Source of the DNA: Escherichia phage BAU.Micro_ELP-22
Sequence record: OR699282.2
Direction: 5' to 3' (one strand)
Length of the DNA: 64,000 bases
The translations under genes and the position numbers were made by a program. This document shows positions 43,631 to 62,874 of the stretch, one piece after another. Positions within the stretch are counted from its first letter, which is position 1, and each line of letters starts with the position of its first letter. The notes beneath the pieces are model-generated. The model was not told where the DNA came from. It did no database searches and worked only from the letters and a program-made list of their open reading frames with translations.

Positions 43631-44250
43631 TCAAAATTTTATTTTGTTTTTTCCAATAGTTCCCCTACCGCGTGGGGATAGTTTCCCCGCAGTATCTGGT
43701 GTTAGATTTTTCTGAATCTGGAATCATTATCTTATAAACTGGGGGCAATGTCAACGACCTGGACGGATATTTTTAAAAATTTTTTCAGTACTGAATTTTG
43801 GGCGTAACTATGCACCCGGTGGGCTGGAGTCTTTCTCGACTTGATGGAACTATTATACAGTACTGGAAAAATAAAGCAATACCCTGGAAGCAAAAAAGTT
43901 TTAATTAATTTGCTTGCTATCCTGGGCCGGACTATGGTACTATAATTCAGTACTGAGAAAGTGCGTTTGCCTGCTAGGGTGCGGGAGTGTATCCTTTTTT
44001 TATATCTTGAATTTTGGGCGTAATTCCGCACCCTCTGGGGTTTCCGCTTTCTCGTGTCTATGTAGTAATTATACGCTTTTTCAGGATCAAGTCAATACCT
44101 AAAAACAAAATAATTGAAAATAATTTAACGCGTTTAAACGGCCTGTAAAGCCCTGGAATGATTGGAATGGTGCAAATGTATAGCTTATGTGTATTAATGC
44201 GTTAGAATGCGTCTGAGGCCGTTTTTTGGGGTGTAGTAGTGATTTGGTTG

Positions 44251-44345
44251 ATTCAGTACTGAATAATAGTACTCCTATATAGAAAGATAGTTCCCCTGGA
44301 TTGATTCAGTACTGAATAATAGTACTCCTATATAGAAAGAAAACT
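44251..44345. repeat. ~40-bp direct repeat x2 (GATTCAGTACTGAATAATAGTACTCCTATATAGAAAGA)
   Basis: Two near-identical copies ~55 bp apart. Confidence 0.6.
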
Positions 44346-44371
44346 ATTTTAAAAGTATTTGTAGAAAGTAC

Positions 44372-44399
44372 TTGCACCGTACTGATAAAAGCGTATAAT
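44372..44399 (+). promoter_or_regulatory. class A early-type promoter (AGTACTTGCA..TATAAT) followed by 5' stem-loop
   Basis: First of ~25 similar promoters in 44-64 kb. Confidence 0.6.
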
Positions 44400-44454
44400 G
44401 TTTTACATCGAGAGCGGGAACACTTCCCGCTACACTTTAAAAGAGATGAAAACG

Positions 44455-44817
44455 ATGGCGACTCAAATCAATAAAATCATGCTTAACCTGGTAAACTTCC
44501 GCGATGAGATGAAAGGTCTTCCGGCTGAAACTGTAAAAATTCACATTGCAGCTTATCGGGAACTTATTGCAATGTTGCCGCTTAAGCGTGAACAATACGC
44601 CGCTACTTTGATGCTGGATTCAATGATCCATATAATGATCTCAAATGATTTGACGATGGTTTATCAGTATATGGGCGAAAATTTCGCGGTGTGTAGTAAG
44701 CCAGTACCAGGGATGGCAACAACTGAGGAATTGCACGGCTTAAACTTAAAACAAGATGCATGGGATAATATGCCTCGTTTCCTGGTATGGGCTGACAGTG
44801 GCAAAATTTACAAATAA
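44455..44817 (+). CDS. hypothetical protein
   Basis: Start after hairpin and SD AAGAG (120 aa); track ORF 44398 starts inside the -10. Confidence 0.6.
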   Translation: MATQINKIMLNLVNFRDEMKGLPAETVKIHIAAYRELIAMLPLKREQYAATLMLDSMIHIMISNDLTMVYQYMGENFAVCSKPVPGMATTEELHGLNLKQDAWDNMPRFLVWADSGKIYK

Positions 44818-44911
44818 GTTTAATAAAGTACTTGCATACTAAGTTAAAACAAGTATAATACTTTCTATCAGGTGGGGAATAGTTCCCCACTATAATTAAG
44901 AGATTAATTTT

Positions 44912-45145
44912 ATGAGTACTATTTTAACTGTTTCTCAATCCGTTGCACTGACTGACCTATTAAACGCTTTAAGCCGTTGCACTGAGGTTGGCTTGTTTGA
45001 TGTGGTTGACGTTGCACCGGACGTTATTAATCATTTTTGTGATGCGATGGAAGAATGTAAGGAAGATGATAGCCGTATGATGGCGGTCGCCTTTGAGGAA
45101 GTACAGCCAGGTGAGATCAAAGGTTTACCAGTACTGAAAAAATAG
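44912..45145 (+). CDS. hypothetical acidic protein
   Basis: ORF 77 aa; promoter + hairpin + SD upstream. Confidence 0.65.
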   Translation: MSTILTVSQSVALTDLLNALSRCTEVGLFDVVDVAPDVINHFCDAMEECKEDDSRMMAVAFEEVQPGEIKGLPVLKK

Positions 45146-45227
45146 TACTTGCAAACTAAGTTTAAAAGCGTATAATGTTTTACATCAGGTGGGGAATAGT
45201 TCCCCACTATATAAGAGGATTAAAAAA

Positions 45228-45467
45228 ATGGCAAAATCAAAAATGTTCTTAGGTCACAAAAACAAAACTCATTGGAATGTAAGCCTGTGGATTAATAACG
45301 ATGAGGGATTGTATCGGTTGGCCCTGGATTTTATTAACGACAACACTAATCGCAATGATGCGGCCCGTCATATGATGTTATTTTTAGAACAGACTGGACA
45401 AGATAAAACACCGGACGGATTCAAATATAGCACTACTGCGATCCGTGCGGCGATGGTTGGAATGTAA
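45228..45467 (+). CDS. hypothetical protein, paralog of 47341..47580
   Basis: 79 aa; shared GHKNKTHWNVSLWINN..TPDGFKYSTTAIRAAMVGM. Confidence 0.7.
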   Translation: MAKSKMFLGHKNKTHWNVSLWINNDEGLYRLALDFINDNTNRNDAARHMMLFLEQTGQDKTPDGFKYSTTAIRAAMVGM

Positions 45468-45486
45468 TAGAATAGAATTTATTTAA

Positions 45487-45520
45487 AGTACTATCGCAAA
45501 AAATGATAGTACTTTATAAT
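45487..45520 (+). promoter_or_regulatory. class B promoter flanked by inverted repeat AAGTACTAT..ATAGTACTT
   Basis: Palindromic arms upstream of TATAAT; same architecture at ~58664, ~51040, ~54225, ~54490, ~62010. Confidence 0.5.
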
Positions 45521-45557
45521 AGTGTTTTATTCATACACCAACGATAAGGGCAACAGC

Positions 45558-60593: not shown

Positions 60594-60815
60594 ATGACTA
60601 CAATGACTTGCATTTACGCTTCCAATCTTCTGAATGATGCGGCCTTTAATGTTGATTCAGAATATCAATGTTATCGGGATGAAAATAAAAAAGTTTTTGT
60701 AGTTGATAATAATGGTTTCCATATTGAATTGCAATCCGGTTTCACTGGTGTTGATGGTAAATCAGTATGGGGCGTACAGGATGATAAAGGCACATATCAT
60801 TTTAAACGTAATTAA
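60594..60815 (+). CDS. hypothetical protein
   Basis: Start after hairpin, SD AAGGAA (73 aa). Confidence 0.6.
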   Translation: MTTMTCIYASNLLNDAAFNVDSEYQCYRDENKKVFVVDNNGFHIELQSGFTGVDGKSVWGVQDDKGTYHFKRN

Positions 60816-60901
60816 GTATTGACAAAGTATCTTAGTACTGTATAATAGTTTACATCAAGGGGAGAATAGTTCTCCCCACACCAATAAAAGGAAACATAAT
60901 T

Positions 60902-61174
60902 ATGTCTAGCTACTCCGCTACTATGATCATTAAAGATATGAACGGTAATCCTACTTCTGCTGGTGGATCATTTGGAAACATTAATTTAGATGGTCGGTTA
61001 TCCATGCAATCAGCAATCGATGCAGCGAAAGAAGTTTTTAAGAATGAATGTACTGTTAGTAAGCTGGATTATATGGGATTTGCTATCGAAAAAACTAATC
61101 GTTTTGTGAACTACAAAAAACCATTGATGATTGATACTAACCTGAAAGCTAACGAAGTGGAGTACTTATTATGA
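60902..61174 (+). CDS. hypothetical protein
   Basis: ORF 90 aa. Confidence 0.65.
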   Translation: MSSYSATMIIKDMNGNPTSAGGSFGNINLDGRLSMQSAIDAAKEVFKNECTVSKLDYMGFAIEKTNRFVNYKKPLMIDTNLKANEVEYLL

Positions 61175-61362
61175 CAGTTGAAGAAGTTAAAAAAGTACTG
61201 GCAGTACTACGCTATCATAATCATTGCAAGGTGAAGAATGATCCTGATTATCTCGATTCATCCCTGGAAGAGGATACACTACAAGCAATAAGCCATATGC
61301 AAACATTAGCAAAGCGTATGACTGAAAAGAACATGCCGGACTATATCGGAAATAAAATTTAA
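61171..61362 (+). CDS. hypothetical protein
   Basis: ORF 63 aa, ATGA-coupled. Confidence 0.55.
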   Translation: MTVEEVKKVLAVLRYHNHCKVKNDPDYLDSSLEEDTLQAISHMQTLAKRMTEKNMPDYIGNKI

Positions 61363-61449
61363 AAAGTACTTGCATTGTAGTTAGATTAACGTATAATGTT
61401 TTATATCGAGAGGGGGAAATGGTTTCCCCTCAAGTCCAGGAGATACACC

Positions 61450-61713
61450 ATGAACACTATCGAAATCACTATCAATGCACACGTATACGACAACGTAGTA
61501 CTGCAAACTACTATGACCGCTAATGATACCAGTACTTTGCGGAATACTGTTATTAGTGCCGTATGTGCCGCTATCGGTGATGTCGCCCTGGAAAATGCAA
61601 AACACGTAAACGATGGTTTCACTATGTGCAAACGTGATAACGCAAAACATATCATCGTAGAAGGTTACGGCGGTGTAGAATATAATGTTTATATGAAAAA
61701 AGTACTTGCATAA
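61450..61713 (+). CDS. hypothetical protein
   Basis: Start after hairpin, SD CAGGAGA (87 aa). Confidence 0.6.
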   Translation: MNTIEITINAHVYDNVVLQTTMTANDTSTLRNTVISAVCAAIGDVALENAKHVNDGFTMCKRDNAKHIIVEGYGGVEYNVYMKKVLA

Positions 61714-61780
61714 TAACTAAAACAAAGTATAATGTTTTGCATAGGGGGAGATATCCTCCCCCACTAAAAGGAGTAATAAA

Positions 61781-62005
61781 ATGGCTAACTTTGATGAACT
61801 GATGCGGGAAGTAGCTACCCTGGCAGAAGAAAAGAAATCATTCGATTCTATCTATAGCACCGCTCACCGTGATTCAGTACTGGCATGTAACCAGGATCAA
61901 AAAGATGAACTAATCGCCACCTATCATGAAGCATGGAAGTACTACCGACAATGGGAGAAAGAAGAAAGAGAGTCTACCATTGACGGCCTCAATAATCTAA
62001 TCTAA
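61781..62005 (+). CDS. hypothetical protein
   Basis: ORF 74 aa; SD AAGGAG. Confidence 0.65.
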   Translation: MANFDELMREVATLAEEKKSFDSIYSTAHRDSVLACNQDQKDELIATYHEAWKYYRQWEKEERESTIDGLNNLI

Positions 62006-62081
62006 AAGTTTTATTTCAGTACTATTGACATAGCTTGATAGTACTGATGTAATAACTTTACTAACTACAAGGGGAAACATA

Positions 62082-62339
62082 ATGGAACAGTTCACACAAT
62101 ATCGGGTAAATCCTCAAGCTATGGCCTACGTAGAAGACCATAAAACATTACCAGTACTAACACCAATTAAAGGCCATATCTATCGTGCAATGTCATGGAA
62201 TACCGCCCAGGATAGATATACTACCGCTGGCGTGGGTATGTATTGCGGGAATGGTGAATGGTTTGATCCAAATAATCCGGTAGCCATTGACAGTACTGAA
62301 AAAATGAAATGGGCCGACTACATCGAAGATATTTCATAA
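62082..62339 (+). CDS. hypothetical protein
   Basis: ORF 85 aa; class B promoter upstream. Confidence 0.6.
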   Translation: MEQFTQYRVNPQAMAYVEDHKTLPVLTPIKGHIYRAMSWNTAQDRYTTAGVGMYCGNGEWFDPNNPVAIDSTEKMKWADYIEDIS

Positions 62340-62429
62340 AAACTATTTGACAGTACTAACCAGTAATGTATAATGTTTTACATAGAGCGGGGGAATAGTT
62401 CTCCCGCCAATAGTTTGGAGTAAAACATT

Positions 62430-62630
62430 ATGTCTATCGCTATCGCCCTGGTTGAAGTACTGAAAGAAGCTAAAGCCAACCAGATCGACGTAAAGATCCA
62501 GGAACTACAAAACGGCGTAATCGGCTGTACTTGTACCGCTGGTGGAGCGGCAGACTATCGAGAACACGAATCACTCGAATCACTGGTTCGGTATCTTACC
62601 ATGATCGTTGATGATTGGAGAATCATCTAA
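62430..62630 (+). CDS. hypothetical protein
   Basis: ORF 66 aa. Confidence 0.6.
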   Translation: MSIAIALVEVLKEAKANQIDVKIQELQNGVIGCTCTAGGAADYREHESLESLVRYLTMIVDDWRII

Positions 62631-62874
62631 CAAAAAAGAATAAAAAAGGGATTGACTCCGGTCAGTCCCTTTGCTATTATATACGCATAGACAAAAACTA
62701 GCCCACAGGGTGCATAGGTGTATCCAAAATATATAGTTAATAACGGTGAGTAACTATCTGCTGGTGGAGTGAAAACTATTAATAAAAAAGTATTGACAAA
62801 GTATATCAGTACTGCGATAATGTATCTCGTAGGGCGGCAATGGTGCAACGGCCCACAAAGTTAGGAGATTCAAA

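Follow-up and report, generated by a model that had tools for sequence, protein, structure and literature searches.

A stretch of 64,000 nucleotides (nt) from Escherichia phage BAU.Micro_ELP-22 (OR699282.2; hereafter the window) carries eleven copies of a short element built around a 12-nt core, CCCAYAGGGUGC in its RNA form. These copies, which a preliminary description made from the sequence alone had assigned to two repeat families, almost certainly form a single family. They lie within the long direct terminal repeat (DTR) of a jumbo coliphage, and all but one follow a near-consensus sigma-70 promoter. We tentatively read them as sources of abundant immediate-early RNAs, each showing one protein-recognition hairpin and acting in trans as a decoy, sponge or cofactor.

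A single family confined to the terminal repeat

When up to one mismatch was allowed, CCCAYAGGGTGC matched the window at 10 sites compared with 0.18 expected, a count reached in 0/100 shuffles, and CCCNNNGGGTGC gave exact matches at the identical 10 sites (expectation for the core, 0.14–0.18). The short motif of the preliminary description is therefore real and beyond chance, and the coordinates given for it there fall within 7 nt of the six exact plus-strand sites (Table 1). A seventh site listed at 43968 is indeed a copy, albeit one with a degenerate core (CTGCTAGGGTGC at 43971–43982). A covariance model built from relatives and run unfiltered returned exactly 11 copies in the 64 kilobases (kb), 7 on the plus strand and 4 on the minus strand, with E values of 6e-13 to 2e-3 for ten copies, 0.09 for the degenerate copy and 3.7 for the next-best match.

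The longer repeat of ~100 base pairs (bp), previously proposed as a separate family, dissolves into this one: its four sites are minus-strand copies of the short motif together with their promoters. Read on the opposite strand, GCACCCGGTGGG becomes CCCACCGGGTGC and the string CTTGATG..AGTAATTATGCCAGTACTGG becomes CCAGTACTGGCATAATTACTACATCAAG, the −10 and start region of the promoter; GAATTTTGGGCGTAA is present in two copies only (43.8k and 44.0k). Because the reverse-complemented sites read TTGACA, 17 nt, CATAAT, a leader of ~28 nt and CCCACCGGGTGC, which is the layout of the plus-strand copies, there is one family and not two.

Judged by nucleotide identity, the window comes from a 121Q/PBECO4-type jumbo coliphage: positions 53300–58300 are 90–98% identical to the group of 121Q, PBECO4, slurp01 and E9.1 (jumbo E. 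coli myophages, genus Asteriusvirus). In E9.1 (PP886230), bases 1–20107 recur at 347745–367851 as DTRs, and because E9.1 coordinate 1 corresponds to window position 42731, the DTR of the window is placed from ~42.7 kb to just beyond the window end. DTRs of relatives, determined experimentally or by PhageTerm, span 19.7–22.5 kb, including those of Sharanji (PMC11895373), fEgEco12 (PMC13070987) and CBB (PMC5259590). The Klebsiella phage fENko-Kae01 has its DTR at 1–19736, with termini from PhageTerm.

The preliminary description overlooked that the family is restricted to the DTR, as it is in all genomes checked (the window, 121Q, E9.1 and fENko-Kae01). The 11 copies of 121Q lie in 136.5–153.9 kb, and neither 1–50 kb nor the sequence on either side of this cluster, as far as 120 kb and 170 kb, contains any; those of E9.1 lie inside the right DTR only; and fENko-Kae01 carries ten, from 980 to 18790, with none past the repeat. 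Since the copies lie in the DTR, each packaged genome would hold 22 units.

Promoters and genomic contexts

The promoters of 10 of the 11 copies are near-consensus for sigma-70 and share the orientation of the element: TTGACW (TTGCTT in copy 1), a spacer of 16–17 nt and TATAAT, TATTAT or CATAAT, in most copies with an upstream TG (extended −10). Nine copies score 10–11/12 hexamer matches, the TTGCTT-16-TATAAT of copy 1 was seen directly in the sequence, and degenerate copy 2 has a −10 hexamer only. A sigma-70 promoter likewise stands upstream of the element in ~60 copies of relatives. The −10 hexamer ends 21–28 nt short of the core; the preliminary description had put the motif, as a rule, 25–35 nt downstream of a terminator-embedded promoter. 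A conserved CAT follows the −10 hexamer by 5–7 nt, and we infer that the A of this CAU is the transcription start.

The sequence logo of 68 distinct copies begins with CAU, a 3–5 bp stem, the loop R-N-R-W-A-A, the second stem arm and a linker C-U-A-R; it continues with the core, C-C-C-A-Y-A-G-G-G-U-G-C, followed by R-G-A-R-N, U-S-Y-R-U-C and U-A-U-A. The palindrome AGUACU occurs 30–45 nt past the core start in 40/62 copies, compared with 9.7 expected. The same hexamer is frequent throughout the window (295 AGTACT sites versus 22 expected, one per ~217 bp; for example at 43787, 43859, 46188, 48491 and 48569), within genes and promoter spacers (cAGTACTGtataat), at sites that overlap the −35 of standard promoters (AAGTACTTGCA) and at the position after the RNA core, which suggests a genome-wide binding or modification site.

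Embedding of the promoter in a terminator had been described as usual. This holds for four plus-strand copies (53.4k, 57.4k, 60.4k and 62.7k), in which the −35 lies in the stem, and the −10 in the U-tract, of the preceding operon's intrinsic terminator; the other seven have ordinary promoters.

The copies fall into three genomic contexts. Unpaired copies opposite genes (context A) meet a strong intrinsic terminator 46–52 nt past the core, often common to the convergent gene, giving a predicted RNA of 95–105 nt; this layout of own promoter and terminator is found in window copy 6, in 13/62 copies scanned and in fENko-Kae01 copies 3306 and 10999. Convergent pairs (context B) have cores 57–86 nt apart, as at 43971(+)/44039(−) and 46227(+)/46295(−) in the window, and recur in fENko-Kae01 and in several IMG/VR loci. 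Coding-strand copies (context C) mostly have a terminator-embedded promoter and no terminator of their own, with an ordinary early promoter and gene ~60 nt on; running into these, they lack the anatomy of a stand-alone small RNA (sRNA) gene, namely a promoter, a terminator within ~50–300 nt and no open reading frame (ORF). In one relative the module forms the direct 5' untranslated region of a gene. Overall, 4/11 copies in the window and 4/10 in fENko-Kae01 are directed away from all genes.

Several relatives, fENko-Kae01 among them, have a near-perfect Fur box placed precisely between the two RNAs of a convergent pair, with AATGATAATCATT forming part of a longer palindrome (relative loci L002 8077–8110, L006 1275–1310, L023 6090–6115, and L030 1030–1060 and 7306–7330). 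The window has 0 matches to the 19-mer at up to 3 mismatches.

Probable constraint on RNA structure

The first hairpin of the predicted transcript covaries. All four pairs (4/4) change on both sides (95 cells), a level of covariation equalled in 0/500 shuffles, and at least 12 different stems occur, among them UGGC/GCCG, UGAG/CUCA, GACG/CGUC, AGUC/GACU, GGAG/CUCC, AGCA/UGCU, ACCAC/GUGGU, ACAAA/UUUGU and ACCG/CGGU. Hairpin 1 is paired in 91% of cells, compared with 28–57% in a whole-structure control with the 3' partners slid, although alignment A3 was fitted to the covariance model and its pairing percentages are inflated. For this reason an alignment-free test of the leaders was added, in which a stem of at least 4 bp was found in the right place in 55% of distinct leaders and 19% of shuffled ones.

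Within the core, RNAalifold chose a mini-hairpin, R-CCC/GGG-U, without structure input. The base preceding CCC is A or G, and the invariant U pairs with either. Variation is concentrated in the loop of 3 or 4 nt (ACA in 34 copies, AUA in 19, AUU in 5, ACC in 5 and 4-nt loops in 5). A change of C3 to U occurs in two copies only, and the same two are the only copies in which G7 is A (CCU-ACA-AGG and CCU-UAUA-AGG); they are different copies in two Eneladusvirus genomes, unlike each other in both hairpin 1 and loop length.

An alternative helix 2, GGGUGCR/USYRUCY, is paired in 89% of cells, largely via G·U. Its changes are one-sided, and all those on the 3' side are transitions that keep G·U, G-C or U-A/U·G. 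Helix 2 and the mini-hairpin are mutually exclusive, and the RNA may therefore be bistable; both helices are short, and this core part of the structure model is provisional. Mutual information gave no further helices.

Constraint probably acts on the RNA and not on duplex DNA, because G·U pairs cannot form on the complementary strand. The preliminary description had offered two ideas on function. One, that the repeats are protein-binding sites in DNA, fits poorly with the strand-specific nature of the constraints, seen in the abundance of G·U pairs, in compensatory changes of the stem and in a loop that varies in length; protein binding to the RNA form of the motif is plausible instead. The other, that they are parts of small transcripts, is supported by the sigma-70 promoter in fixed orientation at 10/11 copies, the covarying 5' hairpin and several terminators ~95–105 nt from the predicted start.

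A small ORF, with GGGUG as a Shine–Dalgarno-like sequence and RUG as a start, was rejected: half of the copies have AUC, GUC or AUA there (G at position 19 in 41/71 copies), the mini-ORFs range from 1 to 13 codons and no peptide is conserved. Two further pairings, a pseudoknot between the triloop and downstream UGU and one between the hairpin-1 loop and UAUCU, were discarded as neither is maintained across variants.

Distribution and database comparisons

A blastn search with one 96-nt unit matched 73 phage records, and all confident matches were jumbo phages, with hosts in Escherichia, Klebsiella, Salmonella, Erwinia, Yersinia, Cronobacter, Serratia and Pectobacterium. An exact-pattern scan of IMG/VR recovered further family loci, and copy number and positions vary among relatives. 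Public records label these sites, if at all, as 'hypothetical protein', 'terminator', 'discovered using ARNold', 'redundant repeat' or 'terminal repeat', and never as RNA.

Scans for the element gave a single chance match in 185,579 bacterial and archaeal species (one genome each) and no match in PLSDB plasmids or in 5,426 complete E. coli genomes, and a host or prophage origin was accordingly rejected. A transfer RNA (tRNA)-like gene or known RNA family was rejected too, since ARAGORN found 0 tRNA or transfer-messenger RNA (tmRNA) genes in the window and Rfam 15, whose families cover C4 antisense RNA, preQ1, 6S, ribozymes and known phage RNAs, gave 0 matches over its whole length at gathering thresholds; at E ≤ 5 over 43600–63000, Rfam returned two unrelated weak matches (mir-1000 and Trp leader), neither at an element. 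In the library of papers that was searched, by motif strings and for jumbo-phage early RNAs, there was no account of the element.

The nearest published case is PA5oct, a related Pseudomonas jumbo phage with two highly transcribed non-coding RNAs in its DTR (PMC7318152). These, ncRNA001 and ncRNA002, resemble the present family in coming from a related clade with a long DTR and in their high transcription from early on (2–5% of phage reads), but they are single copies of 236 and 451 nt (PMC7318152). The comparison with PA5oct was by blastn with the 96-nt unit, and that phage was absent among the matches. Early phage sRNAs and promoter-proximal hairpins are themselves known, and with none of these does the family agree in sequence, structure or defining features; what is unusual is the combination of multi-gene organisation, DTR restriction, terminator-embedded promoters and conserved convergent pairs.

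A proposed function and its alternatives

Under the reading that we favour, transcription of the eleven paralogous units by the sigma-70 RNA polymerase of the host would yield short RNAs during the first minutes after infection. Their functional portion would be the first ~45–50 nt, with the remainder differing by context. Hairpin 1 (3–5 bp, a purine-rich loop, present in about three-quarters of copies) would probably protect the 5' end; it would be followed by the linker CUAR, the mini-hairpin R-CCC/AYA/GGG-U with GC directly after it, and a 3' segment USYRUCY able to pair instead with GGGUGCR. The invariant mini-hairpin would most likely be recognised by an RNA-binding protein, either a host factor conserved in the Enterobacterales or an early protein of the phage, and during host takeover the abundant RNAs would serve in trans as a decoy, sponge or cofactor. 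On units in the non-coding strand, the terminator would also shield genes from antisense transcription.

That, in the window and in fENko-Kae01, unpaired copies on the non-coding strand are capped by a terminator and those on the coding strand are not suggests that the RNA module itself is the product and that read-through is simply tolerated; on balance we lean towards an action in trans. Because the most conserved bases pair mutually around a variable loop, the core looks like a recognition hairpin rather than an open antisense seed; that the ligand is a protein and not a base-pairing target is a possibility we put forward tentatively. Abundant non-coding RNAs that offer many copies of a short protein-recognition motif through repetition are familiar from CsrB/CsrC, RsmY/Z and 6S, although such sponges repeat the motif within one RNA, whereas here there is one motif per RNA and 11–22 genes. 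A CsrA/RsmA sponge has GGA in every hairpin loop, and here GGA appears in some hairpin-2 loops only: across 71 copies, loop positions 14–16 are G (46/71), A (47/71) and A or G, with many loops reading AUAAA, ACAAA or AGCAG.

Several points weigh against this reading. Throughout this phage group, start sites, RNA ends and expression are predictions from sequence. Hairpin 1 is missing from 13/53 distinct leaders, which keep an A-rich stretch (CAUAGACAAAAACUAG). Support for the mini-hairpin comes from one-sided R:U variation, two compensatory sequences and loop-length variation only; its CCC and GGG are otherwise invariant and uninformative on pairing, and at 3–4 bp it is predicted to be marginally stable, with single-sequence folds in disagreement. 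Pfam scans of the neighbouring genes for a partner protein gave a DksA/TraR zinc finger and a weak kinase match only, and no RNA-binding domain emerged from Pfam scans of element-adjacent genes together with a charge survey of the DTR ORFs. Since coding-strand copies have no terminator, each would start a long messenger RNA (mRNA) with the module at its 5' end, unless processing intervened. Finally, a decoy leaves the recurrent convergent pairs unexplained.

Rather unlikely, in our judgement, is a role in cis within the nascent RNA, either as an attenuator or as a site like nut/boxB, put or qut. Here the promoter-proximal hairpins would load a phage or host factor onto RNA polymerase, or act on it themselves, and by altering pausing or read-through would govern the passage from immediate-early to delayed-early expression; the two exclusive helices (CCC/GGG versus GGGUGCR/USYRUCY with a U/A-rich tract after it) would form the switch. 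In favour of such a role, the promoters are strong and early, and the element occupies +15 to +45 of the transcripts predicted from them; the DTR is divided into terminator-bounded units, and at four copies transcription would begin anew precisely where an operon terminates; sigma-70-like promoters are not in excess in the genes that follow the DTR; and hairpin 2 with U7 in copy 2 resembles a terminator (a few relatives also have U5). The GG-N8-UG within GGUGC-N5-UG has the spacing of the elemental pause and ops consensus, the GCCC..GGG stem is akin to that of lambda boxB at only 3–4 bp, and lambda PR'-qut-tR' also combines a promoter, a site and a nearby terminator.

The likeness extends to the leaders bearing lambda nut (boxA-boxB), where N acts, and rrn boxB-boxA: these too are small G+C-rich hairpins of nascent RNA just past strong early phage promoters of the host polymerase, with stems free to covary beside a conserved linear or structured element, and, as for rrn boxB, the upstream hairpin is dispensable in some copies here. 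However, boxA (CGCUCUUA or UGCUCUUUA) is absent near all copies, where the logo linker is CUAR, and YGCTCTTWA at up to one mismatch gave 51 matches versus 48 expected, none in an element leader. The loop is a variable triloop (AYA, AYY or 4 nt; hairpin 1 loop RNRWAA) rather than a GNRA-like pentaloop, hairpin 2 is weak and, in most copies, rich in G·U and flanked on the 3' side by UAUA, which makes a poor U-tract, and no N-, Q- or NusG-like gene was recognised. Of the 11 copies per repeat, about a third are directed off genes, and the unpaired ones among these meet their own terminator at once, which would stop transcription rather than release it. HK022 put is similar in being a two-hairpin RNA immediately past early promoters that acts as RNA and not as DNA, yet put is ~65–75 nt with two long stems in two copies, both on the sense strand; no similarity was found in sequence or at the Rfam level, and terminated antisense copies would make no sense for put.

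Less probable again is a set of sibling base-pairing sRNAs, possibly Hfq-dependent, whose C-rich core would be the seed for a conserved host mRNA or sRNA that they repress or sponge. The terminated copies do have the anatomy of an enterobacterial sRNA (a conserved 5' region, an AU-rich spacer, a terminator hairpin and a U-rich tail), conservation of the core across phages of eight host genera would fit a conserved host target, and A-rich loops could bind the distal face of Hfq. Against these stand two variable positions in the middle of the 12-nt core whose invariant halves are mutually complementary, the pattern of a hairpin, and terminator tails that are interrupted U-tracts. Targets inside the phage were set aside, as the complement CTRTGGG is not enriched in the window (10 sites versus 8.5 expected, 6/10 being the elements themselves). 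Pairing with ribosomal RNA (rRNA) or the rrn leader was rejected too: no match was significant, the best duplexes were no better than those of shuffled queries, and what we had presumed to be likenesses to the 16S 530 region, h44 and tmRNA led no further. In copy 3, CCCAGAGG may resemble the 5' end of OmrA/B.

A signal at the DNA level in the initially transcribed region, either a repressor operator or roadblock that shuts the promoters off or a sequence-specific pause site, is very unlikely. The element keeps a fixed distance and orientation with respect to its promoter, CCC-N3-GGG makes a small palindrome, and AGTACT is enriched just downstream and in promoter spacers. Nevertheless, covariation of hairpin 1 would be meaningless for duplex DNA; C3 to U is coupled with G7 to A, and the loop varies between 3 and 4 nt; helix 2 requires G·U to pair; and ~40 other early promoters of the same DTR have no core.

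We consider it least probable that the units are mobile promoter-plus-leader cassettes with no RNA function, which would spread and persist as recombination linkers in the shuffling of early genes, or else R-loop primers for the firing of T4-like origins. The model for such cassettes would be the PeSL cassettes of T4-type phages, reportedly described by Arbiol, Comeau and Krisch in 2010 as promoter-early-stem-loop modules. Both systems repeat sigma-70 early promoters with stem-loops in a hyperplastic region of small early genes, and the DTR is a mosaic in which nearly all small genes have such a cassette: a sigma-70 promoter (AAAAAGTACTTGCA..GTATAATGTTTTACATC), a G+C-rich hairpin and a ribosome-binding site. 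Variation of copy number and positions among relatives, the clade's T4-like genes for replication and recombination (UvsW, UvsX, UvsY and RNase H among them) and the AT-rich DNA after the core would also fit. It is the ordinary gene cassettes that are of the PeSL kind, however; the motif units are a second class with another promoter subtype and the invariant 12-nt core, occur in either orientation, some with their own terminator, and for the most part do not directly precede an ORF. A 10-nt invariant core and its pairing persist where the flanks of blastn matches are only ~73–80% identical, and this persistence implies selection on the element itself. Furthermore, hairpins in nascent RNA oppose R-loop formation, and eleven origins in 20 kb would be unlikely.

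Individual copies and other features of the terminal repeat

The eleven copies are listed in Table 1.

Table 1. Copies of the element in the window, with predicted promoters and RNA modules (window coordinates; minus-strand promoters and modules are given 5' to 3').
Copy	Span	Strand	Core	Promoter	Module	Covariance model score	Setting
1	43796–43879	−	43812–43823	TTGCTT (43879–43874), 16-nt spacer, TATAAT (43857–43852)	43844–43796; hairpin AGUC/GACU, CCCACCGGGUGC, hairpin-2 variant GGGUG/CGCCC	49.3 bits, E 1.9e-9	Directed towards left DTR end and iteron array
2	43941–43995	+	43971–43982	−10 TATAAT (43941–43946), no good −35	Degenerate; core mutated to CUGCUAGGGUGC; hairpin 2 (43976–43995) plus U7 terminator-like	Partial match, E 0.09	Convergent with copy 3
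3	44012–44095	−	44028–44039	TTGACT-16-TATAAT (44095–44068)	44060–44012; core CCCAGAGGGUGC, hairpin-2 variant GGGUG/CGCCC	25.3 bits, E 6e-4	Convergent with copy 2
4	46173–46254	+	46227	TTGACT-17-CATAAT with upstream TG (46173–46201)	46207–46254; hairpin UGGC/GCCG, CCCAUAGGGUGC	51.9 bits	Convergent with copy 5
5	46268–46345	−	46284–46295	TTGACA-17-CATAAT (46345–46317)	46305–46268; short A-rich leader class without hairpin 1; core CCCACCGGGUGC	22.7 bits, E 2e-3	Convergent with copy 4
6	48460–48589	−	48521–48532	TTGACA-17-CATAAT (48589–48561)	48553–48505; then AU-rich spacer with AGUACU and terminator CGGGGAG..CUCCCCG (48480–48460)	38.8 bits	Complete predicted small-RNA gene on the strand opposite coding genes; predicted RNA ~100 nt; terminator common to convergent gene 48203–48454
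7	53353–53442	+	53415	53360–53388; −35 TTGACT in terminator hairpin of upstream operon (53353–53380), −10 TATTAT in its U-tract	53394–53442	59.6 bits	Standard early promoter next, at 53493
8	55034–55118	+	55091	TTGACA-17-CATAAT (55034–55062)	55070–55118; hairpin GACG/CGUC, CCCAUAGGGUGC	32.5 bits	Followed by 260 nt non-coding, then DksA/TraR-like gene
9	57391–57475	+	57448	57398–57426; terminator-embedded (hairpin 57391–57418)	57432–57475; short A-rich leader class	36.8 bits	Chi at 57479, standard promoter at ~57517
10	60382–60471	+	60444	60389–60417; terminator-embedded (hairpin 60382–60409)	60423–60471; hairpin UGAG/CUCA, CCCAUAGGGUGC	64.6 bits, E 6e-13 (top score)	
11	62645–62729	+	62702	62652–62680; terminator-embedded (hairpin 62645–62672)	62686–62729; short leader class	39.6 bits	Chi at 62760; final copy, ~1.4 kb before DTR end

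Promoter density differs between the DTR and what follows it. The DTR has 97 sigma-70-like promoters versus 66 expected, including ten perfect 12/12 matches. Just after the DTR of 121Q (relative locus L028, 35700–50000), dozens of small genes are tightly packed with few terminators, and sigma-70-like promoters show no excess (76 versus 86 expected). From this lack of excess it follows that the post-DTR cluster may depend on read-through, and it probably relies on transcription coming in from the DTR.

Two DTR genes have Pfam matches, one of them weak. The gene at 59729–60370 (+) contains the pattern GxGxxG..VIKV..D-x-K-x-x-N..DYG with a weak Pfam Pkinase match (E 0.004, under the curated cut-off), and in Munch and fENko-Kae01 the corresponding genes carry the label 'putative protein kinase'; the gene is reminiscent of gp0.7, the early kinase of T7. 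A DksA/TraR-type zinc-finger gene lies at 55361–55618 (Pfam E 1.6e-10), and the 260 nt of non-coding sequence between it and copy 8 (55100–55360) abound in GATC and TGATCA repeats (TTGATCAAAAAATGATCTGATCAATACTTGATCAA). At 46609–46755, a direct tandem duplication of ~67 bp (ttttctgaattgaacgcagaacaaaaaacgtcagctatcgaactggttcgggaacgtgaaaaaaactcaaacgaca) breaks the frame of an early gene into ORFs 46570–46695 and 46692–47258.

A second repeated non-coding unit occurs behind standard early promoters at 46428–46515, 57553–57640 and ~49690–49760. It reads CAGGACGGGGAACGAAAUAAGUAAC..CCCGUUAAGUAGYCCAGGAGUAAGRCAYACGAAAAMCUCCCCUGAUAAAA, with a TTGACA promoter directly after, has no Rfam match and may be another small-RNA family.

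Chi (GCTGGTGG) is present at 16 sites in the window compared with 0.6 expected, in the same orientation as the genes: 43299(−), 43311(+), 50415–62760 (+) and 30415–36917 (−). The pair at 43299/43311 faces each other ~570 bp inside the left DTR end, sites at 57479 and 62760 stand directly behind RNA copies, and in relatives Chi is also found within some element promoter spacers. These sites may shield the linear ends from RecBCD. An array of ~8-bp iterons (GGATGGCT, AGACGGCT and AAACGGCT) at 43500–43630, 0.8 kb inside the DTR and just downstream of leftward copy 1, may be an origin or end-processing site. At 43660–43692, TTCCCCTACCGCGTGGGGATAGTTTCCCCGC is loosely similar to the stem and 3' handle of CCCCGCGCCAGCGGGGATAAACC, which we take to be the E. 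coli type I-E CRISPR repeat; this similarity is probably due to chance.

Implications

Rak2/121Q-like jumbo phages are under development against E. coli, Klebsiella, Salmonella and Erwinia, although nothing is known of their early regulation or of >80% of their genes. Their first-expressed DNA, the 20-kb repeat, would hold a conserved, multi-copy structured RNA besides dozens of tiny proteins, and this RNA family is reported by no annotation pipeline. Because all copies share the invariant 12-nt core, one antisense oligomer or pull-down bait would reach the whole family.

A more specific proposal, speculative and on the unlikely side in our view, is that the mini-hairpin is an RNA tag for a dedicated factor, taking one of two forms. 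In the first, a multi-gene decoy against a host protein, a flood of RNAs in the first minutes would neutralise a defence or housekeeping RNA-binding protein shared by the Enterobacterales. In the second, a nut-like switch, one factor would free the sense copies into delayed-early genes and push the capped antisense copies through their terminators, silencing immediate-early genes. Were the RNA to titrate a host factor or gate read-through, phages that depend on the host RNA polymerase would have a new takeover mechanism, and the tag, if real, would be a previously unseen layer of control or counter-defence in giant phages.

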